Position numbers and translations under genes: made by a program. Below the pieces are notes generated by a model that did not search any database, was not told the DNA's origin, and saw nothing but the letters and a program-made list of their open reading frames with translations. Of a stretch of DNA of 64,000 nucleotides, positions 2,371-64,000 are shown in pieces. The stretch's first letter is position 1; the number at the start of each line of letters is the position of its first letter. The stretch is taken from IMG/VR virus record IMGVR_UViG_2917752670_000006, positions 1,765 through 65,764 of that record; one strand, 5' to 3'. The stretch is from a virus (Duplodnaviria > Caudoviricetes).

Positions 2371-2374
2371 GGGC

Positions 2375-25100: not shown

Positions 25101-25174
25101 TCTATACACGCTCACCTTTGCCCTACATATCAAGCAAAAACCCGCCCCAGGGCTACACAGAGATGATGATCTCT
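25101..25174 (-). promoter_or_regulatory. Variant cassette promoter with palindrome AGAGATGATGATCTCT
   Basis: CTTGAT..GAGCG, similar to 3668-3697; palindrome at 25159-25174. Confidence 0.55.
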
Positions 25175-27564: not shown

Positions 27565-27601
27565 GGGTGGGTACTCCTTCACGTTGAGGGGTTGGGATAA
27601 C

Positions 27602-27635
27602 AAAGCCCCACCACCCGAGAACCGGGTGTGGGGCG
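27602..27635 (-). terminator. Hairpin/terminator between terS and metK
   Basis: GCCCCAC..CCCG / CGGG..GTGGGGC followed by TTT. Confidence 0.5.
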
Positions 27636-45748: not shown

Positions 45749-46136
45749 TGACTCGTCCCTTCTGATGAAGGGAGAGCCGTTGAGCAGGGCGTATTCAGGT
45801 ATGGAGGGCGCGTTGATATGACGATGGCGGGCACCCCGGTGAAGGGGCACCCGCCAGGTCGCTCAACAGCTCTCCAGTGCGAATACGTGGAGCCTGGCTT
45901 GATCAGGGCCTGGCAAAGACACTCACTCCTTGCGGCCACTTGGAGTGCGCGCCGCTTGTTACACGCTGGAGCGTGTCGCAAGCACCTTGGAAGGACTGTC
46001 GGGATACACTGAAGGAGTTGCTCCGGGGTGTATCTCGGCGAGAACTTCTCGGTGCTTCGACTCTAAAAATCGGGCGAGAGAATGTCCTTGCCCCGCTTTG
46101 GGTGCTGTTTTGGCGCTCTTTTCCAAGGAGGTCGCA

Positions 46137-47378: not shown

Positions 47379-47601
47379 CAAGGTCACCCCATACTCCCAG
47401 TCCACGCTGAGCCAGTTCCCGCCGATCCTGAAGCAACTGTCCGATCGAGATCTCAGCCCCGCCGCCTTGTACAAGAAGGTCAGATCGAAGTTCGCCGACG
47501 TGGACGAGTTCGCTGACGCCTTGGACTGCTTATACGCACTCGGCCAGATCGAGCTGCTCTACCCAGAGGAGGTGCTCCACTATGTTGGTCGAGTTCGATA
47601 G
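47365..47601 (+). CDS. ABC three-component system middle component
   Basis: MRLPSKVTPYSQS..LY..EFADALDCLYALGQI; overlaps both neighbours. Confidence 0.75.
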   Translation: MRLPSKVTPYSQSTLSQFPPILKQLSDRDLSPAALYKKVRSKFADVDEFADALDCLYALGQIELLYPEEVLHYVGRVR

Positions 47602-49225: not shown

Positions 49226-49232
49226 AGAGGTC

Positions 49233-49484
49233 ATGGCTAAGAAAATCGATTTCGATTACACAGTGGCGCTGTCGTACAAGCCGTTGTGGAAGTTGCTTGT
49301 AGATCTCGAGATGAACAAGCAAGCGCTCAGAGACAAAGCAAAGCTATCTGCGACCACCATGGCCAGACTCAATGCCGGGGATAACCTCACCACCGACGTG
49401 CTGCTGAGAATCTGCCAAACCCTCAGCTGTCAGCTCTCCGACATCGCCACTGTGCTGCCAAAGGAATCTAAGGAAGAACGTTAA
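49233..49484 (+). CDS. Cro/C1-type HTH regulator
   Basis: SYKPLWKLLVD..LS..TMARL..DVLLRIC..L.C..DI. Confidence 0.85.
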   Translation: MAKKIDFDYTVALSYKPLWKLLVDLEMNKQALRDKAKLSATTMARLNAGDNLTTDVLLRICQTLSCQLSDIATVLPKESKEER

Positions 49485-51263
49485 ATGAGCAAGCTTGGAT
49501 CATTCATCTGGAGAATCGCCGACCAGCTGCGAGGTCCCTACAAGCCCCACCAGTACGGGGATGTCATCCTTCCGATGACCATCCTGCGCCGCCTGGACTG
49601 CCTCCTCGCCGACAGTCACGATGAAGTCATCAAACTCGCGGCGACGACAGACAGCCCAGACCTGTTGCAGGTCAAGGTACGCCGTGCCACCGGGCTGGAG
49701 TTTTTCAACACAAGCCCCTGGACACTCAAGAAGCTGCTCGGTGATCCGGACGGTTTGGAGAATAACCTCATCCAGTACCTGGCAGGGTTCTCCTCCAACA
49801 TCGACATATTTCCGCGATTCAAGTTCGAAGAACAGATTCACACGATGGCAGAAAAGAATCTGCTTTTCATCGTGGTCGAGGCATTCACCAAGGTTGATCT
49901 ACACCCCTCCAAGGTCACCAACGCCGAGATGGGTGACATGTATGAGTACCTCATTCGCACCTTCAACGAAAGCTCGAACGAGTCTCCCGGTGAGCACTTC
50001 ACCCCGCGCGACGCCATTCGCCTCATGGTGGATCTAATCTTTGCTGGGGACGACGAAGCACTCAGTGAGCCCGGCACGATTCGTTCCATCTATGACCCCA
50101 CGGTCGGCACAGGCGGCATGCTCTCGATTGCAGAAGAGCACTTCATCGGCTCTGAGGAGATGCCAGGCATGAACCCCCAGGCTCAGTTGCGCCTCTATGG
50201 GCAGGAGTGGAACGACCAGTCCTACGCCGTGTGCAAATCAGACATGCTCATGAAAGGTCATGACCCCTCCAACATCCAGCTTGGGGACACCCTCGCCGAT
50301 GACAAGTTCGCAGGCCAAACCTTCGACTATTGCCTATCCAACCCACCGTATGGGGACGACTGGAAGAAGAGCCAGGCGGCTGTCATGGCTGAGCTCGCCA
50401 ATCTTGGTAGCGCCTCGCGTTTCTATGCGGGAGACCCGACTCCGAAGAAGAATGTGCCTTCCGTCAGTGATGGGCAGATGCTGTTCCTTCAGCACGTAGT
50501 CTCCAAAATGCGACCCTCATCCCAAGGTGGTGGCCGGGCAGGCATCGTCCTGAACGGCTCCCCTCTGTTCAACGGCAAAGCAGGATCAGGCCCGTCCAAC
50601 ATCCGCCGTCGCCTGCTCGAAGCAGATGTAGTCGACGCCATCATCGCACTGCCCACCGACATGTTCTACAACACCGGTATCGCGACCTACATCTGGATCC
50701 TGGACAACAACAAACCCGAAGAGCGCCGCGGCACCGTCCAGCTCATCGACGCCACCGAGTTCTACACCAAGATGCGCAAGAAGCTCGGCGACAAGGGACG
50801 CGAACTCTCCGCCGAGGATCGGATCACCATCCTCAATATCTACGCAGACCACCTTGAAAGCCGGTACTGCAAGATCCTCCCCATCGAAGAGTTTGGATAT
50901 TGGGAGATCACCGTCGAACGCCCACAGCGCGACGATGACGGCAACCCCATCACCACTGCCCGTGGCAAACAACTAGCGGACTCTGCACTGCGCGACACTG
51001 AACGTGTCCCATTCACCTACGGAGGCAACCGCGCAGGCGACGCCGGACGCAAGCAGACCATCGAGACGTACATGCAGGCTGAAGTCTTGCCCTACGTACC
51101 CGACGCATGGGTGGACGCCAAGAAGACCAAGATCGGCTACGAGATCCCTTTCAATAGGCACTTCTACCGCTACACCCCGCCCCGCCTACTCGAAGAAATC
51201 GACGCCGAACTCCAGCAAGTCTCCCGCGAAATTCTCGACCTCCTTAGCGAGGTGACCGAATGA
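49485..51263 (+). CDS. hsdM: Type I R-M methyltransferase
   Basis: IW.IADQLRG, GEHFTPR, YDPTVGTGGML, NPPY, GYEIPFNRHFY. Confidence 0.95.
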   Translation: MSKLGSFIWRIADQLRGPYKPHQYGDVILPMTILRRLDCLLADSHDEVIKLAATTDSPDLLQVKVRRATGLEFFNTSPWTLKKLLGDPDGLENNLIQYLAGFSSNIDIFPRFKFEEQIHTMAEKNLLFIVVEAFTKVDLHPSKVTNAEMGDMYEYLIRTFNESSNESPGEHFTPRDAIRLMVDLIFAGDDEALSEPGTIRSIYDPTVGTGGMLSIAEEHFIGSEEMPGMNPQAQLRLYGQEWNDQSYAVCKSDMLMKGHDPSNIQLGDTLADDKFAGQTFDYCLSNPPYGDDWKKSQAAVMAELANLGSASRFYAGDPTPKKNVPSVSDGQMLFLQHVVSKMRPSSQGGGRAGIVLNGSPLFNGKAGSGPSNIRRRLLEADVVDAIIALPTDMFYNTGIATYIWILDNNKPEERRGTVQLIDATEFYTKMRKKLGDKGRELSAEDRITILNIYADHLESRYCKILPIEEFGYWEITVERPQRDDDGNPITTARGKQLADSALRDTERVPFTYGGNRAGDAGRKQTIETYMQAEVLPYVPDAWVDAKKTKIGYEIPFNRHFYRYTPPRLLEEIDAELQQVSREILDLLSEVTE

Positions 51264-52486
51264 TCTGGGAAGGCTTACCAATCCCACGTACCTGGGGAAT
51301 AGCGCCTTTTTCGACCCAGCATCGATTTCACAAGGGCTTTTCAATCACTAAGGCCGACCTCGTGGATGCGGGAATTCCGGTGGTCAATTACGGGCAAGTC
51401 CACTCGAAAGAAAATACTTCAGTTCGTCTCAGCAGAGCACTACTGCGATACTTACCTGAAAACTTCGATCTTGCTTGTACTCCTCCTCTCGCAGAGGGAG
51501 ATCTAGTTTTTGCCGATACTTCGGAAGATTTGACTGGCGTCGGAGCGTTTGTTCGATACACAGCCGGTTCCAGCAACACTGTGTTTCCGGGCTCTCATAT
51601 CCTCGTCGCAAGCCCAGAACAACAACTTAGGCACCCATACTTCGCGTATTTGTATTTATCAGATGCCTGGAGAAACCAAATTCGCCGTCTAGCTATGGGA
51701 GTGAAGGTATACAGTGTTACCCAAAGTCTTCTAAAAGAGTGTTCTGTGCTACTGCCCCCTACCGAGGCGCAAGACCGGATTGTGCGGTTCTTGGATGAGG
51801 AAACCGCCAAGATCGACCATCTCATCGAAAAGTACGAACGTTTGCTGGATTTGGTCGCGGTTCAAGCTGAAACGCGGTGGCATCAGCTATTTGCAGGCCT
51901 TTCAACGTGTCCAGAGCGTCCGTTGAAGCGAGTGCTTCAGAAAGTAACGCGGCCAGCCTTCGCCGGAGAAGGCGTAATCACCGCATTCAGAGATGGTCAA
52001 GTCACACTCCGCGCGAACCGTCGCGAGGAGGGATTCACTTTCTCCGACACTGAAGACGGATACCAAGGGATCGAACCTGGCGATCTGGTCTATCACGGCC
52101 TTGATGGCTTTGCTGGTGCTGTTGGGGTGTCGGATAGCCACGGAAATGGAAGCCCGGTCTATCACGTCTGCCGCCCGCTCGATGAACAGGACAATCTCCA
52201 TTTCCTGGCCTCCTATCTGAGGTTCCTCGGCCTGAGCGGATTCCTTGCTACCCAAGCGCCCAACGTGCGCCAGCGGTCGGTTGATTTCCGAAACTGGGAA
52301 ACGTTCTCCAGGATTCCAATTAGGGTTCCCTCACGACGTGAGCAAGATGAAATCGTCACACGCTTGGAAGAGTTCAAGACATCGAGGGAAACGACAGAAG
52401 AATTGACGCAAAAAGCGATTGCTTTGCTGCGCGAGCGTCGGTCGGCGTTGATCACGGCTGCTGTGACCGGGCAGATCGAGATGTAG
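51260..52486 (+). CDS. hsdS: Type I R-M specificity subunit
   Basis: Two TRDs; PP..Q.RIV.FLD and LRERRSALITAAVTG conserved regions. Confidence 0.93.
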   Translation: MIWEGLPIPRTWGIAPFSTQHRFHKGFSITKADLVDAGIPVVNYGQVHSKENTSVRLSRALLRYLPENFDLACTPPLAEGDLVFADTSEDLTGVGAFVRYTAGSSNTVFPGSHILVASPEQQLRHPYFAYLYLSDAWRNQIRRLAMGVKVYSVTQSLLKECSVLLPPTEAQDRIVRFLDEETAKIDHLIEKYERLLDLVAVQAETRWHQLFAGLSTCPERPLKRVLQKVTRPAFAGEGVITAFRDGQVTLRANRREEGFTFSDTEDGYQGIEPGDLVYHGLDGFAGAVGVSDSHGNGSPVYHVCRPLDEQDNLHFLASYLRFLGLSGFLATQAPNVRQRSVDFRNWETFSRIPIRVPSRREQDEIVTRLEEFKTSRETTEELTQKAIALLRERRSALITAAVTGQIEM

Positions 52487-52496
52487 GGACTAGAGC

Positions 52497-55400
52497 ATGG
52501 GTGTTGAGCACGAGATTGCTTTCGAGACGGAGATCTGCGAGTACCTGGCTACGCACGGGTGGATCTACGACGGCCCTGGCGATAACGGCGGCTATGACAA
52601 GGAACTGGGTTTGTACCCGGCGGATGTGTTGGCGTGGTTAGAGCAAACCCAGTCTGAGGAGTTCGCCAAGATTGTCCAGCCAGATATGTCTTCGGCTAAG
52701 CAGGAGGCTGCCAAGAGAGCAGTGTTGGACCGGTTGGTGAGGAGCTTGGATAAGCCTCTGGAGCAAGGTGGGGGCACGCTGGCCGTGCTGCGGCAGGGTT
52801 TCCGTAAGGCGCCTGCTCGTTTCTCGATGTGCGCGTTCAAACCGGCGACTAGCTTGAATCCCCTGGCTTGGGATCACTACCAGGCTAACCGTCTGCGCGT
52901 CGTGCGTCAGGTGTACTACTCCAAGTTGCGCCCGGTTGACTCTATCGACTTGGTGCTGTTTGTCAATGGTCTGCCGGTGGCCACGATCGAGCTCAAGACC
53001 GATGACCAGCAGAGCATCGAGGATGCGGTGCGCCAGTACCGGCATGACCGTGATCCCAAGGGTGAGCGGCTGCTGGGTTTCGGTAACCGTTGCCTGGTGC
53101 ACTTCGCGGTCTCAACCGACGAAGTGCGGATGACCACGAAGCTAGCTGGTTCCAAGACGTTTTTCCTGCCCTTCAATCTGGGTCGTGATGGGGGTGCCGG
53201 CAACCCGGTGAACCCCAATGGTGCGGCGTCGTCGTATCTGTGGGAGCGGGTGCTGGACCGTGACGCGTGGCTGAACATCCTGGGTTCGTTCCTGCACCTG
53301 ACCATTGAGCAGCAGGTCGATCCGATCACTGGTGCGCGCTCGACTTCGTCGAAGATTCTCTTCCCTCGTTTCCATCAGTGGGAGCTGGTTACCTCTCTGC
53401 TAGATACGGCCCGTTGCGAAGGACCGGGGCACCGCTACCTGGTTCAGCACTCGGCCGGTAGCGGCAAGACGAACTCGATTGCGTGGCTCGCCCACGGCCT
53501 GTCCAAACTTCACGACGATGCCAACCACAAGGTTTTTGACTCAGTTGTGGTGGTCACGGACCGCACAGTGCTCGATGACCAGCTTCAAAAGGCTATCACC
53601 AGTCTGGAAGGCACTGCGGGAACCGTCGCAAGCATCAACATCGATGAGGCCCGCAGAGCCGGCGAAACCTCGAAGTCTGCTCTACTGGCTGGCTCGTTGT
53701 TGTCGGGCAAGCAGATCGTGATTGTTACGATGCAGACCTTCCCATTCGTGCTCGATGCGATTGCTCAAACCCAGGGGCTGGCTGACCGTAACTTTGCGAT
53801 CATCGCAGACGAGGCGCACTCGTCCCAGACGGGCAGAGTGTCACAGAAACTGCGGGCAGTCCTGACTACCGCAGAGCAGGAAGATGTCGATGACGGTGGC
53901 GACGTTGCCCTGGAGGACGTGATTGCCGCCGAGATGAGTGCTCGCGCGGACGCACCGAACTTGTCCTTCTTCGCGTTCACCGCCACCCCGAAGGCTAAGA
54001 CCCTTGAGCTCTTCGGTCGGCGGGATTCCGATGGTGTTCCTCAGGCGTTCCACGTCTACACGATGCAGCAAGCCATTGAGGAGGGCTTCATTCTGGATGT
54101 GCTGCGCAACTACACCACCTACAAGACTGCCTTCCGGGTTGCTGAAAGCACAAAGAACCCGTTTGCTGATGATGATCTGGTTGATGAGTCGACAGCAACC
54201 AAAGGACTGATGCGTTGGGTTTCTCTGCACCCGACGAATATCGCGCAAAAGGTTCAGATCATCATCGAGCACTACCGCGCCAACGTTGCTTGTCTGCTCG
54301 ACGGTCACGCAAAGGCCATGGTGGTCACGGCCTCACGGGTGGCAGCGGTCAAGTACAAGGAGGCCATGGATCGCTACATCCGCGACCACGGTTATGACCT
54401 GGCCACGCTTGTCGCATTCTCTGGTTCGATCACCGCTGAGCAAGCCCCCGATGTGTCTTTTGGGTACACGGAGCCGCCCTACACGGAAAACACCCTCAAC
54501 CGAGGTCTTCGTGGCCGTAGCCTGCCGAACGCGTTTGCAACAGACGAGTACCAGGTACTGATTGTGGCCAATAAGTACCAGACAGGATTCGACCAGCCCC
54601 TGTTGTGCGCGATGTACGTGGACAAACGACTGTCTGGGATTACCGCCGTCCAGACGCTCTCCCGTCTCAACCGCACCTACCCCGCGGCAGGCAAGGACAC
54701 GACCTACGTGCTGGACTTCGTGAACGACCCTGAGGAGATCTGCAAGTCGTTCTTGCCGTACTACCGCACAGCCGAGATCCTCCAGCCCACCGATCCCGAC
54801 CTGATCTACGACATCCAAGCCAAGCTAGCGGTGCAAGCGATCTACACCGACCAAGAAGTCGAGAACTTCGCGGTAGCCTTCCTCACCAAGGGAACCACCC
54901 ACGGGGCACACACCGGGCCTCTCAAAGCTGCAGCGGACCGCTTCAACGATCGCTACATCCAAGCCGTACAAGGCAAGGACAAGCATCGCATCGACGAACT
55001 GGACCTGTTCAAAAAGGACGTCTCCTCCTTCGTCAAAACCTACGACTTCCTTTCCCAGATCATCGACTACCAAGACACGATGCTGGAAAAGCTCGCACTG
55101 TTCCTGCGCTTGCTGCTGCCGAGACTAACGGGCAAGAAGAACGTCGAAGAGCTCGACTTCTCCAGCATCGAGCTAACCCACATCAAACAAGCCCGAAAGG
55201 CCGATGTGACAATCGATCTCAACGGCGGGACAAGCGACAAGCTCAAACCTGTCGGTGTGGGCAGTGGTGGCACGCACGACCCGAACCTGGTCGAGTGGAA
55301 CACGATCATCGAGCGGATCAACAGCCTGTTCGCGGATGAGGATTTTAGCCCATCGGCGGTGGAGTCCTGGGTCCAAGGCGTTGTCACGATCCTCGTCGAA

Positions 55401-55619
55401 CAAGAAGACATCCGCCAACAAGCAAACGCGAACACTCGAGAGCAGTTCCGGGAATCACGCGACCTGGAACGAGCCGTCGAGGATGCCGTCGTCTCGCATC
55501 AAGAAGACCAGTCGAAGATCATGGATTACTTCTTCTCCAGCGCCTCCCAGCGCGAAGAAATCATCCGCCAGATCAGTGACCTCGTCTATAGCCAACTCAC
55601 GCGCGAGGACCACTCGTAG
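52497..55619 (+). CDS. hsdR: Type I R-M restriction subunit
   Basis: D..LFVNGLP..ELK; QHSAGSGKT; DEAHSSQ; AFTATP; QTGFDQP; QTLSRLNR. Confidence 0.95.
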   Translation: MGVEHEIAFETEICEYLATHGWIYDGPGDNGGYDKELGLYPADVLAWLEQTQSEEFAKIVQPDMSSAKQEAAKRAVLDRLVRSLDKPLEQGGGTLAVLRQGFRKAPARFSMCAFKPATSLNPLAWDHYQANRLRVVRQVYYSKLRPVDSIDLVLFVNGLPVATIELKTDDQQSIEDAVRQYRHDRDPKGERLLGFGNRCLVHFAVSTDEVRMTTKLAGSKTFFLPFNLGRDGGAGNPVNPNGAASSYLWERVLDRDAWLNILGSFLHLTIEQQVDPITGARSTSSKILFPRFHQWELVTSLLDTARCEGPGHRYLVQHSAGSGKTNSIAWLAHGLSKLHDDANHKVFDSVVVVTDRTVLDDQLQKAITSLEGTAGTVASINIDEARRAGETSKSALLAGSLLSGKQIVIVTMQTFPFVLDAIAQTQGLADRNFAIIADEAHSSQTGRVSQKLRAVLTTAEQEDVDDGGDVALEDVIAAEMSARADAPNLSFFAFTATPKAKTLELFGRRDSDGVPQAFHVYTMQQAIEEGFILDVLRNYTTYKTAFRVAESTKNPFADDDLVDESTATKGLMRWVSLHPTNIAQKVQIIIEHYRANVACLLDGHAKAMVVTASRVAAVKYKEAMDRYIRDHGYDLATLVAFSGSITAEQAPDVSFGYTEPPYTENTLNRGLRGRSLPNAFATDEYQVLIVANKYQTGFDQPLLCAMYVDKRLSGITAVQTLSRLNRTYPAAGKDTTYVLDFVNDPEEICKSFLPYYRTAEILQPTDPDLIYDIQAKLAVQAIYTDQEVENFAVAFLTKGTTHGAHTGPLKAAADRFNDRYIQAVQGKDKHRIDELDLFKKDVSSFVKTYDFLSQIIDYQDTMLEKLALFLRLLLPRLTGKKNVEELDFSSIELTHIKQARKADVTIDLNGGTSDKLKPVGVGSGGTHDPNLVEWNTIIERINSLFADEDFSPSAVESWVQGVVTILVEQEDIRQQANANTREQFRESRDLERAVEDAVVSHQEDQSKIMDYFFSSASQREEIIRQISDLVYSQLTREDHS

Positions 55620-55694
55620 CACGGAACGCCCCTGGGTTGCCTTCGCCATCTATCGACGAGGGGGAGGCAACCCAGGCATTTCACGCGAACGAAC

Positions 55695-55746
55695 CTTTTG
55701 ACGCAAGCCCTATACTTTTTGACACGGGGCCGTACTTTTTGACGCT
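55695..55746. repeat. Three TTTTGAC direct repeats at 20-21-bp spacing (putative prophage end/att arm)
   Basis: TTTTGAC at 55696, 55717 and 55737. Confidence 0.55.
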
Positions 55747-55935
55747 TCCTGCCTCAACCGGCCAAGTCACCCGCCGAGAGGCCGCTCCGAAGCCCCGATC
55801 AGCCACCGCCGGGGCACCTCCACAGCTCCGCACGCCCGGACCCAACATCCAGAGAACCGCCCCAGAACAGCGAAACGCCACCTCGGACACTTCCCGGCCA
55901 GGCCAGGATTCTTTGTATCCAGAGTGACGTTCTCT

Positions 55936-55981
55936 TGGAGCGGGTGACGGGAATCGAACCCGCGCTGTCAGCTTGGGAAGC
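55936..55981 (-). tRNA. 3' half of tRNA-Gly(CCC) including CCA; truncated att copy, not a full tRNA
   Basis: Reverse complement GCTTCCCAAGCTGACAGCGCGGGTTCGATTCCCGTCACCCGCTCCA; D-arm and 5' half absent. Confidence 0.88.
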
Positions 55982-56086
55982 GTCGAGGCGACACCTCGCA
56001 AACGTTGCTATTCCGCCGAAACACTGCGATATCTCAATGTTGTTGTTTGTCGTAGGTTAGCAGTTCGAGTCACTTATACGCACCCC

Positions 56087-56106
56087 ATTGGTCACGATTG
56101 GTCACG
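56087..56106. repeat. Tandem 10-bp direct repeat ATTGGTCACG x2 (arm-type integrase sites)
   Basis: About 105 bp from the att core, in an AT-richer stretch. Confidence 0.6.
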
Positions 56107-56245
56107 CCGAACACGTTTTTTGGCCGATCTTGGGCTGCAAGTTTATTGCGAGGGTTTAGGTATTTGGGCTGTTGGTAGTAGATAATGCCGCGCCCTGCCG
56201 CACGACGAAGGGGGCAGGGCGCGGCATGCGGTGCGAGGCAGCAGG

Positions 56246-57598
56246 TCAGGCTGTGCGTGTTCGCAGGGGCACCACGTTGGACGGGGCGGCGGCGTAGGCG
56301 TCCAGGGCGACGGCGATCTGCGCGTCCCGGCCCGCTAGGGCGTGCTGGTAGATCGCAGCGGCCTGGGTCGAGGCGTGGCCGATACGGGCCTGCAACTCGG
56401 CCATGGTGGCACCGCTGACGGCGGCCAGGGTGGCGCCGGTGTGGCGCAGGTCGTGCCATCGAAGGTCAGTACGCCCGACAGTGGCACGGGCAGTGGCCAT
56501 GGCGCGCGAGCGGTGGGAAGCAGACACGACGCCGCCGGAGGGCGTGGTGAACACGAGCGAGGCGGGCCCCTTGGCGGTGTAGGCGTCCAGGTGATCAGCC
56601 AGGGCGCGGGCGACGGTGGCCGGGACGGTGACGGTACGGCGCCCGGCGGCGGTCTTGGGCGGACCGAACGCGCTCCGCCCCGCGCGGGTACGCGTCTGCG
56701 TACGTTCCACGGTGACGGTGGCGGCACCTGGGTCGGCGACGTCCAGGTCGCAGCGTCGCAGGGCGAACACCTCCCCTGGGCGCAGTCCTGAGTAGGCGGC
56801 CAGCAGTGTGGCGGCGCGTAGGTGTGGCGGCATCGCGGCTGCCAGGGCTGAGACCTCGGCGGGCGTCAGCGGCTTGCGCTCGGGGGTCGGGACCGTGGCT
56901 GCCCCGCGCAGGCATGCCGGGTTGCGGTCGATCAGTCCGTCCTCCACGGCCTGGTTGAGGACGGTTCGCAGCAGCCTGTAGGCCTGTGCCGCCTGTGTCC
57001 GCCCGCGCGCGGTGCGCTCGGCGTGTGCCTGGCCGGTCGGGTCCGGGCGTCCAGCGGCCTGCCAGGCGGACAGGACGGCGAGGGGAAGGCGCCCGGTAGC
57101 GGGTACGTCGATCCCGCTGTCCCGGGCCCAGACGCGGGCGGGGTGGCAACGCTGGTTGGCGGACTGTGGGGCTGCGTGCGCACACTGTGCCAGCAGGGCG
57201 GCGTGCCAGTCGCGCACGAGCGGGGTGGTGATCTGTGCCAGGGGCACCGTGGACAGGTCAACCACGCTCACCCCGGTCCCGACGGGGGCGAGGATGAAGC
57301 AGCGTGCCAGGCGGTCGTACAGGCCCAGGGTCGAGGGACGCAGTTCTGTAGCTCGCTGGGTCAGGAAGGCCGGGAGGTAGGCGGCCAGTGTCATGTGCGC
57401 GCCCTCAGGAACGGGCGTCCGGCCACGTATCACCTCGGCGCGGGCGGTCACTAACCATGTCTCGGCCTGGGCGCGGGTGTCGAAGGTAGCGGGCGCGGAA
57501 TAACGGGCGCCGTCGGGGCCGGTGTAGCGGGCACGGAATTGCCCCGACGGCAAGCGGCTGATGGTGCCGAAGGCGCGGCGGTGGGAGCGGGCGGTCAC
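56246..57598 (-). CDS. Tyrosine integrase B (L5-like) with inserted Lsr2-type DNA-binding domain
   Basis: FGTISRLPSG..RARYTGPDG arm domain; GLRPGE, PKT, HDLRH, GH, Y; RVWARDSGIDVPATGRLP insert. Confidence 0.92.
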   Translation of the reverse strand: MTARSHRRAFGTISRLPSGQFRARYTGPDGARYSAPATFDTRAQAETWLVTARAEVIRGRTPVPEGAHMTLAAYLPAFLTQRATELRPSTLGLYDRLARCFILAPVGTGVSVVDLSTVPLAQITTPLVRDWHAALLAQCAHAAPQSANQRCHPARVWARDSGIDVPATGRLPLAVLSAWQAAGRPDPTGQAHAERTARGRTQAAQAYRLLRTVLNQAVEDGLIDRNPACLRGAATVPTPERKPLTPAEVSALAAAMPPHLRAATLLAAYSGLRPGEVFALRRCDLDVADPGAATVTVERTQTRTRAGRSAFGPPKTAAGRRTVTVPATVARALADHLDAYTAKGPASLVFTTPSGGVVSASHRSRAMATARATVGRTDLRWHDLRHTGATLAAVSGATMAELQARIGHASTQAAAIYQHALAGRDAQIAVALDAYAAAPSNVVPLRTRTA

Positions 57599-58296
57599 GA
57601 AAGTTCTCCTAGGTCAAGCATGGGCGGGGTCTGCCCGGCGGGCGGTCCGGGCGCTGGTAGCGGGTCCTGTATGTCCTGCCAGCGGCGCACGGGGGCGAAG
57701 GCGGGGGCGGTAGGCCAGGTCCACGGGGCTGGTATCGGCGTGGCACGGGTGTGGTGGGCGGCGCGGGTGTGGTGGGCGGCGCGGGTGGCGGCATCCATCT
57801 GCCTGTGACACGGGGAGCACATGGGCGTGTAGTCCCAGGGATCGGGCGACCACGCGCCGGTGTCGTCACGGCGGGCGTGGGCGGCGTCAGGGCGTAGTGC
57901 CCACTCGGCTGCCTGGGAGTGGCAGCCCGGCATCGTGCAGGCGTACAGCGAGGCGAAACCACGCGCACGGGACACGCGCACATGAGCGCAGCCATAGCCA
58001 GCAAGTTGGTCGCCTACCCACCGGCCTGAGTCCTGGGCGGCGGCGTAGCCGTCGAGGGTGCCCGGATGAAGGCCACGAGCACGCCGGTAGTGGGCGGCGC
58101 ACAGGCCACGGCCCTGAACAGGCTTGGAGCACCCCTTAACCAGACATGCCCTGCCTGTCAGGGATGAACCTGGGCACTTTTCGTCTCTTTGGTTCGGTTC
58201 CTCCCGCGTTAGGCCGTTTTTTGTGTGGTGGTGGGGGGAGAAGGACAGGCTGGCGCGGGGTGTCCCGTCGAATGTTCTGGAAAAAAGAGAAGCCAT
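57595..58296 (-). CDS. Zn-binding/HNH-like protein
   Basis: C.V.GC..GRGLCAAHY; AH.RV..RG.AS..C..GC; YTPMCSPCH; coupled to both neighbours. Confidence 0.6.
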   Translation of the reverse strand: MASLFSRTFDGTPRASLSFSPHHHTKNGLTREEPNQRDEKCPGSSLTGRACLVKGCSKPVQGRGLCAAHYRRARGLHPGTLDGYAAAQDSGRWVGDQLAGYGCAHVRVSRARGFASLYACTMPGCHSQAAEWALRPDAAHARRDDTGAWSPDPWDYTPMCSPCHRQMDAATRAAHHTRAAHHTRATPIPAPWTWPTAPAFAPVRRWQDIQDPLPAPGPPAGQTPPMLDLGELS

Positions 58297-59696
58297 CAGT
58301 CGTCACCACCTGGCAGGTGGGTCAGCAGCCGGTGCCACAGTTCAGCGGACGGCTCGCGTGCCCCGGTCAATGGTTCGGCGGCGAGGGACCGCACTCGGTC
58401 TAGCGCCCAGTCGTGCGGCTGCCCGGCCCGCTCAGCGTAGACCAAGACCCAACGGGCCAGCGTGTCCGCTTCGAGAGGCAGGCGGGCTTCTCGGACAAGC
58501 GGACCTAGTGGGCCGCGCACCGCTAGCGCAACTTCCCCGGGCAGGTCTCCGACGGGCCAGCCGTCGGGGGTAGGGAAGGGAAGGGTATTAGGGAGGGGGC
58601 ACATTTCTACACCTGTTCGGCGCCTTGAATTGGGCCTGTTGGGACCCCTGTTGGGACCCCCGTTGGGACCCCCGTTCAGACCTGGCAGGTTGGTCGTGTT
58701 TTGGGCCTGTTGTGCCCCCTGTTGTGCCCCCTGTTGGGACCCCCGTTCAGACCTGGCAGGTTGGTCGTGTTTTGGGCCTGTTGTGCCCCCTGTTCGGTGC
58801 GCTGCATGGGCAGTGAGGAAGTCCAACGCATACACCGTTGCTCGCTTCCCTCGATGCAAGGGCATGCATTCGGTTTCCATATGTGTGAGGAAGGCAGCCA
58901 CAACATCGCTTGGGTTGTCCTGGCTGTCTGTTGCTGGCAGCCACCGGGCCAGTGCCCTCGCGGGAGCGGCGTCGGTGCGGGGCCTGTCCTCTGCCCAGGC
59001 GCAGGCTGTCTCAGGGCTCAGGTTCTGGCCTTGGCTGTCCAGGTCTGCGAGCATGCGGGTAAGGGCTTGCCTGTAGGTGGCTAGGGTCGAAGCGCTGTAG
59101 CCGTTCCCCGTGGCCTGTGGCTGCACTACGCCGATGGCGTCTAGCGTGGCGAGCGTGGCGGCCAGGCTCTTTCGGTTGAGCCCGGTCCAGGCTGCCAGTT
59201 CCGCTCTCGTGGCTGTCACGGCCAGGCCGTCGGTCGAGGCCAGGGCGAGCACGAGGGAGACGAGCCGGACGCTGACAGGTTGGCTAGCCAGAGCCGTACA
59301 GGCCGTCCAGTCCGTGACCGCTGGGCGCTCGCCCGTGACAGTGAGCGGCTGGGTGTGCTCGTAGGTGTGGGCGTGCTCGGACCATGCGGGCGTGAAGGCG
59401 TAGCGGGTACGCCATCCTTCCCCTGCACGGGTGCGTGATGTCGTCACGAGCGGGTCCGTGCCAGCCGGTGGGGTGCGTAGATCGCACAGGGCGCGGCGGA
59501 CGGTGGTCAACGGAAGGTGCCCCCATCCTGCGAGATTGTCGCGTCCGGGGGCGGTGCCTTTGCCGTAGTCGTCAGCGGCCAGCAGGTAGGCCACGAGTTT
59601 GGCCGATGGTGTCAGGGGGTATCGGTCTGAGGCGATGGCTGCGCTGACTGTGGCGACGTGCGGGCGGGCACCGTCAACTGTGAGGTGGCCCGACAT
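58296..59696 (-). CDS. Putative replication initiator (two wHTH-like segments, internal repeats)
   Basis: SAKLV..LA..LA.W..TVRRAL..L; ATRAELAAWTGLNRKSL; repeat block inside; follows the excisionase-like gene. Confidence 0.55.
   Translation of the reverse strand: MSGHLTVDGARPHVATVSAAIASDRYPLTPSAKLVAYLLAADDYGKGTAPGRDNLAGWGHLPLTTVRRALCDLRTPPAGTDPLVTTSRTRAGEGWRTRYAFTPAWSEHAHTYEHTQPLTVTGERPAVTDWTACTALASQPVSVRLVSLVLALASTDGLAVTATRAELAAWTGLNRKSLAATLATLDAIGVVQPQATGNGYSASTLATYRQALTRMLADLDSQGQNLSPETACAWAEDRPRTDAAPARALARWLPATDSQDNPSDVVAAFLTHMETECMPLHRGKRATVYALDFLTAHAAHRTGGTTGPKHDQPARSERGSQQGAQQGAQQAQNTTNLPGLNGGPNGGPNRGPNRPNSRRRTGVEMCPLPNTLPFPTPDGWPVGDLPGEVALAVRGPLGPLVREARLPLEADTLARWVLVYAERAGQPHDWALDRVRSLAAEPLTGAREPSAELWHRLLTHLPGGDD
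58633..58795. repeat. Iteron-like repeats: 12-bp units plus a 71-bp duplication
   Basis: CTGTTG(G/T)G(A/C)CCC units; CAGACCTGGCAGGTTGGTCGTGTTTTGGGCC at 58677 and 58748. Confidence 0.85.
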
Positions 59697-59699
59697 GGC

Positions 59700-60161
59700 T
59701 TAGCCTCGAAGGCTCAGCGGGACGCGTGCGGGGGCGGTGTTGGCGTCGATCCACGCGGCTACGGCGGTTGCGGGAACCTGGCACGAACGCACCGTTCCCA
59801 CACGCGGCAACTCGCCATCACGGATCAGCCGGTTAACAGTAGACAGACTGACGCTCAGGCATTGAGCGACCTCGTTGGGGCGCAGCATGGCGGGCACGTC
59901 TACCGTGGCCGGGCCAGCCACGGTGAGGAAGGTGCGGCGGCAGTCAGCAGTCATGCCGCGCGTGGCGTAGTCCAGCACGGCGGCAGCCGGGATGCGTGGG
60001 CGGGTCCCGATACGCAGGACGGGCAGGGCGCCGTCACTGAGCCAGCGAGTGACCGTGATCGGGTGAACGCGGCAGATTCCTGCCGCGTTGGAGCGGGTCA
60101 GCAGAAGCGGCAGGGTGACGGTCGGGGTACCAATTGGGCGCAGAGGGTTAGGGGTAGGCAT
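59700..60161 (-). CDS. Tandem HTH_17 excisionase-like protein
   Basis: LLT...AAGICRVHPITVTRWL..G.LP and MLRPNEVAQCLSVSLSTVNRLIRDGELP; GAGGA RBS. Confidence 0.8.
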   Translation of the reverse strand: MPTPNPLRPIGTPTVTLPLLLTRSNAAGICRVHPITVTRWLSDGALPVLRIGTRPRIPAAAVLDYATRGMTADCRRTFLTVAGPATVDVPAMLRPNEVAQCLSVSLSTVNRLIRDGELPRVGTVRSCQVPATAVAAWIDANTAPARVPLSLRG

Positions 60162-60253
60162 GGCTTGGGTGTCCTCTCAGGGGTACGGGTGTACTGAGAG
60201 GCCGCCGGGCACCTGTGCCGGTGGTGTGGTGTGAGGGCTCGCCTAACGGGGTT

Positions 60254-61096
60254 TCAGGCGGCCAGGGTGAAACGGGCGCAACTGCCCTCACCCACCGGCG
60301 CAGGGGCCACGGTGGGAGGGGCAGCGGTCAGGACCGCGCGCGTCAGGCTGACCAGGACGGGCCGCCACGGTGGCGGCCATGCGTCAGTGCTAGATGCCCG
60401 GCGCCATGTTGGCGCGGGTACGTCATCGAGGCCGGGGACGAACTCAGGTAACGGCGAGAGCGTAGCCGTGTCGTGTAGGGCGCGCTCGGCGTGGTAGGCG
60501 TAAAACTCTCTGCACTGACGCGCCAACTCTGCATGGCGAACAAAAGCGCGCATTGAGCAGCGCGGATGTGGGCGGCGTCGGAGACGGAACTGCCCAAGGG
60601 GACGTAGTAGGCGCCCGGCGGTGTGCCCGCTTAGGTCCTCCCATTCATCCAGCCATCTTTCCACGATGGGGAGACACTGCGAGGACGTTGGTTCAGATTC
60701 CACGACTCGCCGGGGAGCACCTTGGGCCTGCCGAATCCGTGCGGCTCGCGCTGCGCGACGGCTGGCTGACCATTCGCCCCGTGGGGTGTGCAGGTTCGAC
60801 AGTTCGAAGGCCAGCCAGGCCGCAGAGCGCTCGGCAGCGAGGATGATATGAGGCGACAGCCCGGAAACGCGCAACGATGTAGCCGCGTCGTTGAGCGCAG
60901 TGCACACGCGCAACACGGTGTCATCCACATTGAGGCGCCACTGCTTACGGGGGCGGTGGTCACCGGAGAGTTCGTCGATGAGGGCGGCAACGTCGGGGTG
61001 GGACGTGATGAGCGGGTGCAGCCGTGCCAGGCGACGGCCCAGCGCGCGCGGTGCGTGCGAGGGGTTGGGCCGTGGTCGGCGGTGGCTGCGTGTCAT
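60254..61096 (-). CDS. Hypothetical protein
   Basis: About 280-codon ORF co-oriented with the element; family not recognised. Confidence 0.5.
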   Translation of the reverse strand: MTRSHRRPRPNPSHAPRALGRRLARLHPLITSHPDVAALIDELSGDHRPRKQWRLNVDDTVLRVCTALNDAATSLRVSGLSPHIILAAERSAAWLAFELSNLHTPRGEWSASRRAARAARIRQAQGAPRRVVESEPTSSQCLPIVERWLDEWEDLSGHTAGRLLRPLGQFRLRRRPHPRCSMRAFVRHAELARQCREFYAYHAERALHDTATLSPLPEFVPGLDDVPAPTWRRASSTDAWPPPWRPVLVSLTRAVLTAAPPTVAPAPVGEGSCARFTLAA

Positions 61097-61152
61097 GGGT
61101 GAGAGCATGGCGCGGTCGTTTACCTAGGGCAAGCAGATTCGGCGTGTGGTTC

Positions 61153-62532
61153 TCATTTGGTCCGATTTTTCCCACGTTCAGGCCTTGAAGCGGGGCGGGG
61201 CAGGGCGGCGTATTCGCTGCGCTGTGCCACGGCGGCGATGACGGCGCGCAGTTGGTCGGCGTCGGTTGCTACGTAGCGTTGTGTGGTGGTGGGGCTTGCG
61301 TGGCCTAGGAGTCGTTGGACGGAGAACAGGTCTCGCGTGGCGTCGTAGGCGGTGGTGGCGAAGCGGTGGCGCAGGGCGTGCAGGGTGTAGGGCGAGGGGA
61401 TCAGGTGGCGCACGCTGTCTGCCACGCGTTCGGCGCTGAGGTGTGAGCCTTGTCCGTTGGGTAGGGCGTAGCCGTGTGGGTCTGCGTTGGTGGCGTCGGT
61501 CAGGAGGGCGGCTAGGCCCGGGGCGAGGGGTACTAGTCGCTGCTTGGAGCCTTTGCCGTGGACGGCTAGGACGGTGCCGCCTGAGGTATGTAGGAGGTCG
61601 CGGGCGTGGATGGTGGCGATCTCTGCGCGGCGTAGGCCTGCCTCGGCTGCGCAGCGCAGTATCAGGGTCTGCCGTGCGTCAGCGGCGGCCAGCGCCTGGC
61701 ATAGGAGGTCGTCGGGCAGCGGGTGGGGGTTGGGGCCGGGGCGGCGCACGGGTGGGATCACGTCAGCCGGTGAGGTGGTGAGGTGTCCGGCGGCAACACC
61801 CCAGGCGTAGAAGGCGCGCAGGGTGGTGCGTAGGGAGTGGCGGGTTTCTAGTGCGATCTCGCGGTCTGTGTACCACTGAAGCAGGGCGGGAGTGTTCACC
61901 GACCACGGGCCATGTTCGGCGTCGGGGATGGTGCGTGCTAGGTGTGCGAGTTGCTCGCGGGACTTTTTCCGGGATGTGGTGGCGCGGCCTTGGATGCGTT
62001 CGAAGGCCATGAACGCGGTGATCGCTTCCTCCCATACGGGTGGGACGGGTGCGGCGACCGGGCCGGTCCGGCGCACGGGGGCGCGGTCCTGGGCGTGGGG
62101 TTCGTCGAGTCCGGGCACGTCCTCGCACTCAGGCGGGGCGGTGCGCGGGATCGGGGGCAGGTGGCGGGCGGGGCTGGTTGAGATGTAGCCCCTGGCCTGG
62201 GCCCAGGCGAAGAAGCCTCGCAGGGTGTAGCGGATGCCTCGGCGGGTGGCGTGGGCTAGGTCGAGGCTGTCGAGCCATGTCAGCAGGTCGGGGGCGGTGA
62301 TGGTGCCGGGGGTGTGGTCGGGGTGGTCTAGGGCGAGGCGTCGCAGGTGGCCGCGTCGGGCGGTCAGGGTGGTGGGCTTGGTGCCTGTCTTGGCGCACTC
62401 GGCCAGGTAGACCCTGATCAGGCTGTCCCAGGCCGGGGGCAGGGGTGGGGCGTCGGGGCGTCCGTTGGGTCCCTGTGCCTCATTCAGTGGGCGGTGCACG
62501 GGGGCGGCGGAGTGGTGGTTCCGGGCGGTCAC
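61153..62532 (-). CDS. XerC-like tyrosine recombinase with duplicated core-binding domain
   Basis: Two W..I..T..R..L..LA..LR.F.AW..G...SPA..PP units; GLRRAE, GKGSKQR, HALRH, LGH, Y. Confidence 0.88.
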   Translation of the reverse strand: MTARNHHSAAPVHRPLNEAQGPNGRPDAPPLPPAWDSLIRVYLAECAKTGTKPTTLTARRGHLRRLALDHPDHTPGTITAPDLLTWLDSLDLAHATRRGIRYTLRGFFAWAQARGYISTSPARHLPPIPRTAPPECEDVPGLDEPHAQDRAPVRRTGPVAAPVPPVWEEAITAFMAFERIQGRATTSRKKSREQLAHLARTIPDAEHGPWSVNTPALLQWYTDREIALETRHSLRTTLRAFYAWGVAAGHLTTSPADVIPPVRRPGPNPHPLPDDLLCQALAAADARQTLILRCAAEAGLRRAEIATIHARDLLHTSGGTVLAVHGKGSKQRLVPLAPGLAALLTDATNADPHGYALPNGQGSHLSAERVADSVRHLIPSPYTLHALRHRFATTAYDATRDLFSVQRLLGHASPTTTQRYVATDADQLRAVIAAVAQRSEYAALPRPASRPERGKNRTK

Positions 62533-62614
62533 GAGAGTTCTCCTAGGCAGGCGGGTGCCGGTGGGGCCGGGGCGCGGCCTGTGGGGCGGGCGTCCTACGG
62601 CGGCGTGTGGGTGG

Positions 62615-64000
62615 TCAGGCGCTGAGGCGGTGCAGGGGCACGACGTTGGTGGGGGTGGCGGCGTAGGTGTCCAGGGCGGCGGCGATCTGTGCGTCCCGGC
62701 CCGCTAGGGCGTGCTGGTAGATGGCGGCGGCGCGTGGTGAGGCGTGGCCGATGCGGGCCTGCAACTCGGCCATGGTGGCGCCGCTGATGGCGGCCAGGGT
62801 GGCGCCGGTGTGGCGCAGGTGGTGCCATGTGACGTCGTCGCGCCCGATGGCTGCGCGGGCGGTAGCCATGGCAGTGGACCGGTTGGACGCCTGAACCGGG
62901 TTCCCATTGGCGGTAGTAAATGCCAGGGCGTCGGGGCCGGGGGCGGTGCAGGTGTCGAGGTGGTGGGCCAGGGCGCGGGCGACGGTGGCCGGGATGGTGA
63001 CGGTACGGCGCCCGGCGGCGGTCTTTGGCTCACCTATCGCAGGCTGCCAGCTACGGTTGCGCGTCTGAGTGCGGGCGACTGTCACGGTGGGGTTGGCTGG
63101 GTCGCTGAGGTCGATGTCTCGGCGTCGTAGGGCGAACACCTCGCCGGGGCGCAGTCCTGAGTAGGCGGCCAGCAGTGTGGCGGCTCGGAGGTGTGGCGGC
63201 ATGGCGGCTGCCAGGGCCGAGACCTCGGCGGGCGTCAGCGGCTTGCGCTCAGGGGCGCGTGAGGTGCCTGCGCCTCGCACGCGGGCAGGGTTGTGGTCGA
63301 TCAGCCCGTCCTCCACGGCCTGGTTGAGGACGGTTCGCAGCAGCCTGTAGGCCTGGGAGGCCTGGCAGCGGCCTGGGCGACGTCCGGTGTCCTCCTGGAG
63401 GTCCGGGGCTGGCTGAGGGCGTCCAGCGGCCTGCCAGGCGGCCAGGACGGCGCGGGGCAGGCGCCCGGTGGCCGGTACGTCGATCCCACTGTCCTTCGCC
63501 CATGCACGGGCGGGGTGGGTGCGGCGGGTGGCGCGCACGGCGGCGGTCGTGGTGCGTGTGGTGGCTGAGCGGTCGAGTTGCTCGCACAGGGCGGCGTGCC
63601 AGTCGCGCACGAGCGGGGTGGTGATCTGTGCGAGCGGCACCGTGGACAGGTCAACGGTGGTGGCCGGGCTGGTTCCGACGGGGGCGAGGATGAAGCAGCG
63701 TGCCAGGCGGTCGTACAGGCCCAGGGTCGAGGGACGCAGTTCGGCGGCTCGGTGGGTCAGGAAGGTAGGGATGTACTCGGCCAGTGTCGTGGGGGCTGTG
63801 AGGGTGGGGGCTGTCCAGGTGCCGCGCAGCACGTCAGCCTGTACGCCGATCAGCCAGGCCTCTGCCTGGGCGCGGGTGTCGAAGGTGGTGGGGGCTGAGT
63901 GACGTCTGCCGTCGGGGCCGGTGTACCGCACCCGGAAGCGTCCTGAGGGCAGGCCGGTCACGGTACCGAAGGCCGAGTGCATAGGCTTGCGCCGTGGCAT
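62615..64000 (-). CDS. Tyrosine integrase A (paralogue of B) with inserted Lsr2-type DNA-binding domain
   Basis: Same architecture as 56246..57598; RAWAKDSGIDVPATGRLPRAVLAAW insert; HHLRH..GH..Y. Confidence 0.92.
   Translation of the reverse strand: MPRRKPMHSAFGTVTGLPSGRFRVRYTGPDGRRHSAPTTFDTRAQAEAWLIGVQADVLRGTWTAPTLTAPTTLAEYIPTFLTHRAAELRPSTLGLYDRLARCFILAPVGTSPATTVDLSTVPLAQITTPLVRDWHAALCEQLDRSATTRTTTAAVRATRRTHPARAWAKDSGIDVPATGRLPRAVLAAWQAAGRPQPAPDLQEDTGRRPGRCQASQAYRLLRTVLNQAVEDGLIDHNPARVRGAGTSRAPERKPLTPAEVSALAAAMPPHLRAATLLAAYSGLRPGEVFALRRRDIDLSDPANPTVTVARTQTRNRSWQPAIGEPKTAAGRRTVTIPATVARALAHHLDTCTAPGPDALAFTTANGNPVQASNRSTAMATARAAIGRDDVTWHHLRHTGATLAAISGATMAELQARIGHASPRAAAIYQHALAGRDAQIAAALDTYAATPTNVVPLHRLSA

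Follow-up and report, generated by a model that had tools for sequence, protein, structure and literature searches.

Tyrosine integrases of a small tRNA-integrated actinobacterial element carry an Lsr2-type DNA-binding domain within their core-binding domain

Why does a tyrosine integrase carry, within its core-binding domain, a segment that resembles the DNA-binding domain of the nucleoid protein Lsr2? The question is raised by two integrase genes, Int1 (56246–57598, minus strand, 450 residues) and Int2 (62615–64000, minus strand, 461 residues), in a 64,000-nucleotide stretch of viral DNA (the window), which comprises bases 1765–65764 of the 65,764-base IMG/VR record IMGVR_UViG_2917752670_000006, classed as a provirus, with window base 64000 at the record end. 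Both open reading frames are as an earlier reading of the letters (the original prediction) had described them, and the positions given there for the insert coincide with the match to the Pfam family PF23359, the Lsr2 DNA-binding domain, in Int1 and in Int2. Integrases of this class that resemble those of lambda and L5 ordinarily depend on separate DNA-bending proteins. We conclude that the insert has at its core a true DNA-binding domain of the Lsr2 type, homologous to the C-terminal domain of Lsr2, and we go on to weigh what it may do for the integrase that carries it.

Int1 and Int2 are intact, heterobivalent tyrosine integrases of the L5/pMR2-like kind. They are 72% identical to one another (324/447) and both match PF00589 (E 2.2e-13 for Int1 and 2e-15 for Int2), with Int2 also matching the PHROG 1 integrase family. 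In a 122-sequence alignment that includes Int1 and Int2, the catalytic residues R284, K326, H393, R396 and Y428 do not vary and H419 hardly does, and the whole set including H419 is invariant in an alignment with the integrases of pMR2 and BabyRay and with insert-less homologues. An AlphaFold model of Int2, run on the family alignment (mean predicted local distance difference test score, pLDDT, 91.1), begins with a three-strand sheet (residues 12–16, 22–27 and 33–35) and a helix (43–59) that precede the core-binding helices, and Foldseek matches the integrase model to lambda Int (1z1b) and the Tn1549 integrase (6emz). The model predicts the separate arm-binding and core-binding domains of a heterobivalent integrase, and the domain order in Int1 and Int2 is an N-terminal arm-binding sheet and helix, a four-helix core-binding domain and a catalytic domain. 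Int2 homologues also carry precomputed marks for PF26003. Arm-type sites are only suggested, by repeats in the attachment (att) region described below.

The insert separates two helices of the core-binding domain. Its extent was judged from an alignment of Int1 and Int2 with the integrases of pMR2 and of the cluster A mycobacteriophage BabyRay, which serves here as a stand-in for L5, and with three insert-less homologues. The stretch from the invariant Trp of WHAAL to the Tyr of QAYRLL is 75 residues long in Int1 and 83 in Int2, and 15–17 residues long in BabyRay Int (15), pMR2 Int (17) and the closest insert-less homologues. Int1 and Int2 carry about 58–68 extra residues at this point, close to the 55–60 of the original prediction, which was also right in ascribing only a short loop to L5-type integrases. 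The Int1 insert, bounded by the alignment gap against these relatives, occupies approximately residues 136–199 (57002–57193, minus strand) and begins by extending a core-binding helix, with the Lsr2-type helix-loop-helix and then a linker of variable sequence after it; the Lsr2-type core is at residues 155–182 (57053–57136, minus strand) and contains a hook tripeptide, TGR (57089–57097, minus strand). The Int2 insert, placed by the alignment and the model, occupies approximately residues 139–210 (63371–63586, minus strand), with its core at residues 160–192 (63425–63523, minus strand) and the hook T178-G179-R180 at 63461–63469 on the same strand. The 34-residue insert cores of the two proteins are identical at 30 positions and differ at 4.

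Homology of the insert to the Lsr2 C-terminal domain, which had been proposed from the letters alone, is upheld by Pfam, PHROG and profile searches and by the predicted fold. When the Lsr2 DNA-binding profile is used, as had been suggested, Int2 scores 31.5 bits over residues 160–192 (E 1.1e-7), above the PF23359 gathering cut-off of 26.9 bits, and Int1 scores 24.1 bits over residues 155–182 (E 2.4e-5), just below it. In the PHROG collection, family 1223 ('nucleoid associated Lsr2-like') matches Int2 at residues 149–196 with E 3.4e-7. A profile covering the entire integrase family finds the Lsr2 chain 2kng (E 5.6e-7) exactly over the insert, at profile positions 152–193, and a profile of the insert only, made from 60 inserts from genome loci, finds 6qkq, 6qkp and 2kng at E values of 2.2e-10 to 4.3e-10, with the next chain at E 0.2. 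No family for the N-terminal dimerisation/oligomerisation domain of Lsr2 is found among the Pfam matches at E up to 1, and the Lsr2-type module of Int1 and Int2 is flanked by integrase helices. As it comes without the N-terminal oligomerisation domain, the insert would not be a bridging silencer by itself.

The structural model provides further insights into how the module is accommodated. In the model of Int2 the third core-binding helix is prolonged as one long helix (residues 128–160), after which the insert forms a helix (163–170), a loop bearing the hook (171–182) and a second helix (183–191), this block having pLDDT values of 94–97; a linker without helix or strand (192–210) then leads to the fourth core-binding helix (211–230). 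Both helices of the insert are recovered when it is folded alone (mean pLDDT 70.8). Structure prediction had been put forward as a check on the Lsr2 assignment, and its outcome is a predicted helix-loop-helix whose top Foldseek match is the Lsr2 structure 2KNG (E 0.11, root-mean-square deviation 0.6 Å over 29 columns, 41% identity); the best two of the 9 matches to the isolated insert are Lsr2 domains. A VIA search of 48,161 representative chains gives the Lsr2 domain 6qkp as the sole match with Z of at least 2 (Z 3.9, root-mean-square deviation 6.5 Å, 44 residues aligned).

Lsr2 itself offers a guide to which residues of the insert should matter. In a review of silencers (PMC8476142) the RGR trio of Lsr2 is described as inserting into the minor groove and R84 of M. 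tuberculosis Lsr2 as contacting phosphates, and replacement of both hook arginines by alanine is described as nearly abolishing binding. The hook of both Int1 and Int2 is TGR and not the RGR of Lsr2, a change that the original prediction had pointed out. Residues were counted among 116 insert-bearing homologues, in which the linkers flanking the module vary freely in sequence and length. R165, which aligns with Lsr2 R84 in the profile alignment to 6qkq, W167, A168 and the hook glycine G179 are each present in 116/116. At the first position of the hook, 96 have T, 12 S, 3 Q, 2 A, 2 R and 1 V, and the third (R180) is R in 100, K in 7, A in 7, Q in 1 and T in 1. As TGR is conserved across these homologues, it is a trait of the clade and not a local mutation. 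Most of the Lsr2 DNA-contact set is kept, namely the phosphate-contacting arginine, the hook glycine and the second hook arginine, with threonine in place of the first hook arginine.

A literature search found no studies of threonine at the first hook position, although other hooks offer a comparison. According to the same review (PMC8476142), the hook of H-NS is QGR and its sequence preference is shifted; since H-NS works with QGR, a polar residue other than arginine at the first position is compatible with groove binding. The QGR hook of H-NS and the RGRP AT-hooks of HMGA resemble the hook of the insert in being short Gly-Arg loops, which in H-NS and HMGA enter the AT-rich minor groove (PMC8476142), although their folds are unrelated to that of the insert. 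The C-terminal domain of Lsr2 (PF23359; 2KNG, 6QKP, 6QKQ) is like the insert in sequence, in its fold of two helices and a hook loop, and in the phosphate-contacting arginine, hook glycine and second arginine; the insert differs in having TGR instead of RGR and in being embedded in an enzyme rather than forming part of a free nucleoid protein.

How widespread is this arrangement? When proteins are searched with Int2, 1576 of the 8000 candidates scored reach E 0.001 or better, and 87 of 120 Int2 homologues, among the matches listed, carry a precomputed PF23359 mark. Judged by loop length, the insert is present in 116 of the 122 aligned closest homologues. In a collection with one genome for each species, a relative is encoded by 426 of 599 candidate stretches, and 78 of these 426 loci (labelled L004 and so on) were kept; the survey figures per locus given below rest on these 78. 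A tree was made of 85 integrases from the kept loci, the window, pMR2 and BabyRay, with the insert columns excluded and one row of fewer than 300 residues dropped. Among these integrases 61 carry the Lsr2 insert, 12 carry an unrelated insert of 30–41 residues and 12 carry none. All 61 insert-bearing rows fall on one side of a branch with a Shimodaira–Hasegawa-like approximate likelihood ratio test value of 99, a support that is indicative only, as the tree is the product of a quick search under a simple model; their placement in one clade argues for one change, that is, a single origin of the insert. Insert-bearing integrases occur in Actinomyces, Brevibacterium, Brachybacterium, Demequina, Microbacterium, Nocardioides, Propionimicrobium and other genera. 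The architecture is very common and widespread in actinobacteria, which is the outcome of the survey of domain architecture that the original prediction had called for.

The same loop has been interrupted in other ways. Two tandem Lsr2-type copies are found in the integrases of L016 and L047, with inserts of 141–143 residues, and the unrelated inserts of 30–41 residues, which are helix-like and charged, lie in the same core-binding loop of 12 integrases of other clades (L050, L056, L058, L059, L061, L052, L053, L073, L065, L072, L060 and L063). From these alignments the core-binding loop seems to be a hot spot for insertions.

In the phage and viral-contig sequences that were searched the insert is absent. 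A tblastn search of 50,697 phage records found none at E up to 0.01, and the best 30 phage integrase matches listed are two-piece matches of 1089–1146 nt, that is, integrases without the insert. Among viral contigs none was found in the best 80 of 435 relatives, a profile search was empty and the lone tblastn match holds a stop codon.

A recent capture of Lsr2 from the host was considered as the source of the insert and rejected. Each of the five host genomes tested has a canonical small Lsr2 (56–69 bits, in open frames of 114–154 residues), whereas the integrase inserts score 24–40 bits against PF23359, far below the hosts' own proteins, and the insert marks one old clade; the scores point to an old acquisition rather than to a recent copy of a host gene. 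One further genome observation is a 51-bit Lsr2 domain within a 1158-residue open frame in G002.

The insert-only profile also reaches 5259 representative proteins at E up to 0.001. Its top scorers are small proteins with two to six tandem Lsr2-type repeats, mostly with RGR, among them a protein of 541 residues with 6 tandem Lsr2-type DNA-binding repeats (P0121). Single-domain matches of 400–570 residues, in which the domain is at about residues 140–225, mostly have TGR. In L006, two Lsr2-like repeats (4569–4670 and 4731–4832, within 4569–5198) lie in frame directly upstream of a homologue (4845–5198) of orf233, a gene of the window described below; elements of this family may thus contain another type of fusion with an Lsr2 domain.

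The Lsr2-insert integrases belong to a family of small integrative elements at tRNA genes. No whole tRNA is found in the window by ARAGORN, and a 24-nt T-arm pattern has one match in it, with 0 expected. The minus strand at 55936–55981 carries the 3'-terminal 46 nt of a tRNA-Gly gene, beginning at the anticodon stem-loop; this is the distal, attR-type att site. Actinomyces urogenitalis DSM 15434 (L004) has a matching 8.1-kb segment with 86% identity and the same gene order, which has an intact tRNA-Gly(TCC) on one side and, 8128 bp away on the other, a perfect 46-bp repeat of the 3' part of that tRNA, with its Int2 homologue starting about 140 nt after the intact tRNA. Int2 of the window is likewise the tRNA-proximal copy, its predicted start codon being on the last base of the record, and the intact tRNA for the window element would lie just past that end. 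Int1 and Int2 belong to an element of about 8 kb in the 3' half of a tRNA-Gly gene. The attachment site of the L5-type system is also in the 3' part of a tRNA gene, and L5 itself integrates in tRNA-Gly.

Similar sites are found among the kept loci, of which 32 have a tRNA 3' part of 42–49 nt repeated 2.4–10.4 kb downstream, most often at 7.5–9.5 kb. The repeat is perfect in 30 of the 32 and 89–98% identical in L064 and L065, and in all 32 the tRNA is a few hundred bases upstream of the integrase gene. The insert-bearing clade uses tRNA-Gly(CCC), Gly(TCC), Ala(GGC, CGC, TGC) and Glu(TTC), with the repeat beginning at the anticodon stem-loop.

Next to the distal att site is an AT-richer arm (55982–56185, no strand assigned) that extends from the att core to the hairpin past Int1. 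The GC fraction is 0.585 at 55001–56000, rising to 0.65–0.74 from 56001 onwards; over 55979–56228 it is 0.54 (0.375 in the lowest 40-nt window), compared with 0.70 for 56246–64000, and the AT-richer att arm described originally beside Int1 is accordingly seen in these figures. The arm includes a tandem 10-nt repeat (approximately 56087–56106), a candidate arm-type integrase site, and a related repeat is present in both att arms of L004. Short repeated A/T-run motifs also occur outside the att copy, at about 55700–55750 in the window and at about 13500–13560 in L004.

The element in the window has the gene order tRNA, Int2, Int3, orf284, a double helix-turn-helix protein of the excisionase family, orf466, orf233, Int1, the AT-richer arm of about 200 bp and the repeat, with Int1 as the distal copy at the end of the gene run HTH_17, orf466, orf233, Int1. 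An Lsr2-insert integrase gene at each end, on the same strand, is also a feature of the tRNA-Gly(TCC) elements of about 8 kb in three families (Actinomyces, Brevibacterium and a Dermabacteraceae metagenome-assembled genome), the two-integrase elements being at 56246–64000 in the window, 5305–12969 in L004, 10018–17604 in L009 and 10034–17334 in L011. Identity between the two copies is 78% in L004, 83% in L009 and 99.6% in L011. In the tree, the pair formed by Int1 and Int2 is old, while the pairs in L009, L011 and L006 are each other's nearest relatives. That Int1 and Int2 might mark two tandem elements was considered and rejected, as there is no internal att core (one match in the window, and only the two outer repeats in L004, L009 and L011).

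In the two-integrase elements the first integrase copy is followed directly by a tyrosine recombinase of another kind, the third in the element. In the window this is Int3 (61153–62532, minus strand, 459 residues; PF00589 E 4.5e-20), which is directly downstream of Int2 and has no Lsr2 insert and no PF23359 match. Relatives of Int3 occur in 26 of the 78 loci, where they directly follow the Lsr2-insert integrase or else are encoded on the opposite strand at the far end, and an internal repeat in the N-terminal part of Int3-type proteins, detected by tblastn, suggests two core-binding-like domains. A 42-nt imperfect repeat (83%) covers the ribosome-site region and first codons of both Int1 (57572–57613) and Int3 (62506–62547), and the hairpin past the Int1 stop codon (56211–56235) resembles a stretch past the Int2 stop codon (62564–62588). 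The 4.9-kb inner unit from Int3 to orf233 could lie between two integrase genes that were once adjacent.

The layout also recalls plasmids and elements of the pSAM2 type, although the likeness is incomplete. The integrase of pMR2 (pSAM2-type, from the actinomycete integrative and conjugative elements, AICEs) is the best plasmid match, with 41.8% identity, and has no insert. It closes a rep-xis-int run, much as Int1 closes the run from HTH_17 to Int1, and both integrate at tRNA genes. However, neither an FtsK/SpoIIIE-type transfer protein nor a recognisable replication initiator was found in the window element with Pfam, PHROGs and NCBIfam, and we rejected an AICE for this reason, although orf466 or orf284 may be a divergent replication protein. 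No capsid gene was seen in the element in the same three collections.

What, then, might the Lsr2-type domain do? We consider it moderately probable that it binds the minor groove of AT-rich DNA near the core sites of the integrase and so aids the recombination complex on attP. In this model the domain would be borne on the lengthened helix, with return to the integrase fold through a variable linker of about 20 residues; its binding to AT-rich att DNA near the core sites would add a contact, and perhaps a bend, which would help to assemble the complex on attP as a built-in architectural aid. We rank this minor-groove contact first because the Lsr2 contact residues are kept while the linkers drift, because the module sits in the DNA-clamping domain, because it is doubled in the integrases of L016 and L047, and because related integrases need a DNA-bending host factor: according to PMC3627587, which cites Pedulla et al. 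1996, the L5 intasome is formed with the host factor mIHF (mycobacterial integration host factor), which is required. An architectural aid is plausible in view of the arm-binding fold in the model, the repeats on both att arms and the use of mIHF in the related L5 system. That the insert binds DNA at all, which DNA this would be, and whether host factors become less necessary are matters of inference. A stronger form of the proposal, that the integrases are self-sufficient, with the module binding and bending the AT-rich DNA between arm and core sites, or displacing host Lsr2 from it, such that a factor of the integration host factor (IHF) type is dispensable for the intasome, strikes us as doubtful.

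A number of observations weigh against a minor-groove contact at att. Int1 falls short of the Pfam cut-off, and when the single Int2 insert sequence is searched against solved structures the Lsr2 chains (E 0.1) rank below a chance match to an unrelated human protein (E 0.04); as chance matches were ranked above Lsr2 in this way, we rely on profiles for the homology. The fold statistics for the isolated insert are weak (Foldseek E 0.11, VIA Z 3.9), which we ascribe to its length of only about 40 residues, and the scores indicate no other fold. By analogy with Lsr2, loss of the first hook arginine may mean a lower affinity or a different specificity or preference, and we found no DNA-binding result for any insert-bearing integrase. 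All five tested hosts keep a canonical Lsr2, so the insert is no stand-in for a missing one. The att arms are just 6–8 GC points below the element body. They are also no AT-richer in insert-bearing than in insert-less elements: over 31 of the 32 direct-repeat loci (L043, with two repeats and a distant tRNA, was left out), the mean drop in GC of the P arm is 0.060 and 0.049 respectively, means computed on 26 insert-bearing and 5 insert-less loci where the true division is 27 and 4, as L022, with an insert of 82 residues, was mis-scored.

Other explanations account for part of the same evidence. The module may no longer bind DNA and may have a protein–protein or spacing role, for example in contacts between protomers in the synapse, with the TGR loop kept for structural reasons. 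We regard this as unlikely, although the first hook arginine is lost in 114 of 116 homologues, the second has become alanine in 7 of 116, and the unrelated inserts in the same loop of other clades indicate that the site generally tolerates insertions. The invariant residues are, however, the DNA contacts of Lsr2 (the R84 equivalent, the hook glycine and, mostly, the second arginine), and H-NS binds with QGR, both points as given in PMC8476142; the tandem doubling of the module in some integrases also fits a DNA hook better. Were the module not to bind DNA, some other reason would have to be sought for why the contact residues of Lsr2 are so strictly conserved.

Two further proposals retain DNA binding and differ in what the domain acts upon. 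In one, cis counter-silencing, which appears less probable again, host Lsr2 would coat the AT-richer att region and the integrase-borne domain would compete locally for the same minor-groove sites, opening the silenced DNA to the integrase. The canonical Lsr2 present in the five host genomes besides the integrase inserts would provide the silencer, the insert is the DNA-binding half only (no other Lsr2 family at E up to 1), and AT content within the element is highest in the att arm. However, in insert-bearing elements the arms have a mean GC of about 0.61–0.63, a moderate AT-richness that may be too little for strong coating by Lsr2, and insert-less relatives in equally GC-rich hosts do without the domain. 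Least probable, to our minds, is a role on the target side, in which the domain contacts chromosomal DNA at attB or the core site and tunes the choice of target rather than the architecture of attP. The position of the insert in the core-binding and not the arm-binding domain is as expected for such a role, as is the narrow target set of the clade (Gly, Ala and Glu tRNAs adjoining the integrase gene), but insert-less relatives use like targets, including tRNA-Gly(CCC) in L052, tRNA-Gly(TCC) in L064 and L077 and tRNA-Ala in L072, which shows that the insert is not required for the choice.

Among known systems, the L5-type and pMR2-type relatives lack the module. BabyRay Int, of the L5 type, belongs to the same family as Int2 (35% identity over 90% of Int2) and has the same domain order, with the short loop already described. 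The nearest published precedent for Lsr2-domain integrases (PMC8612146) is the fusion of Ku to an Lsr2 domain in the cluster J mycobacteriophages (Omega, Corndog). Like Int1 and Int2, it joins an Lsr2 DNA-binding domain to a DNA-processing protein of a mobile element; it differs in that its Lsr2 domain forms the C-terminal tail and has an RGR hook, and is not an internal insertion in a folded domain with a TGR hook. The original prediction had been offered with the proviso that the architecture might prove to be already common and characterised. Common it is, with 61 of the 85 integrases in the tree and a visible mark in Pfam annotation, but not characterised as far as we could find: our search, which did not extend to supplementary tables such as that on actinophage Lsr2-domain proteins in PMC8612146, gave no published description of an integrase with an Lsr2 domain.

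The arrangement is of interest as a nucleoid-protein domain placed inside an enzyme and retained over a whole clade from many actinobacterial genera. If the module binds DNA, it would offer a simple system in which to study the recruitment of architectural functions into recombinases, and a way to ask how mobile elements cope when their own AT-rich attachment regions are subject to xenogeneic silencing; less host-dependent integration vectors for use in GC-rich actinobacteria may also result. Should the integrases prove self-sufficient, they would be the first heterobivalent tyrosine integrases to have an architectural protein built into the core-binding domain, and could be carried over to GC-rich actinobacteria as a tool for integration.

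The remaining genes of the element are all on the minus strand. A protein of 153 residues (59700–60161) has two HTH_17 domains of the excisionase family (PF12728 E 1.1e-17 over 2 stretches; TIGR01764 E 2.7e-15) and is a candidate directionality factor or regulator. The zinc-finger HNH-like protein orf233 (57595–58296; phrog_4160 E 6.8e-18, with a weak HNH endonuclease PHROG match) overlaps the start codon of Int1, and in L006, L009 and L011 its homologues immediately precede the distal integrase. Upstream of it, orf466 (58296–59696) has a weak Crp-like helix-turn-helix match (PF13545 E 1.8e-5, below the cut-off) and no PHROG or NCBIfam match, and a replication or regulatory role for it is only a guess. 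Within orf466, at 58630–58800, there are 12-nt periodic repeats, including two 71-nt units that are 93% alike, which encode a Gly/Pro/Asn-rich repeat. No match in Pfam, PHROGs or NCBIfam is found for orf284 (60254–61108), which has a homologue in L004 only. A GC-rich inverted repeat right after the Int1 stop codon (56186–56227, minus strand) looks like a terminator.

The rest of the window is occupied largely by a prophage, with capsid, terminase and tape measure genes, which spans approximately 1–45 kb. Two genes for large serine recombinases mark its left end (1236–3613; 412 residues, and 273 residues with a partial resolvase domain). As the prophage has these large serine recombinases and Int1 and Int2 are in the small tRNA-Gly element, we ruled out that they are the integrases of the prophage itself. 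A defence island follows the prophage (45930–55619); it encodes a protein of the ABC-3C type with a CTD11 domain, a DUF2326 protein, and all of HsdM, HsdS and HsdR, making a complete type I restriction system. Within the prophage there is also a full S-adenosylmethionine synthetase gene (26380–27603), with a DNA methylase gene adjoining it at 25173–26285.

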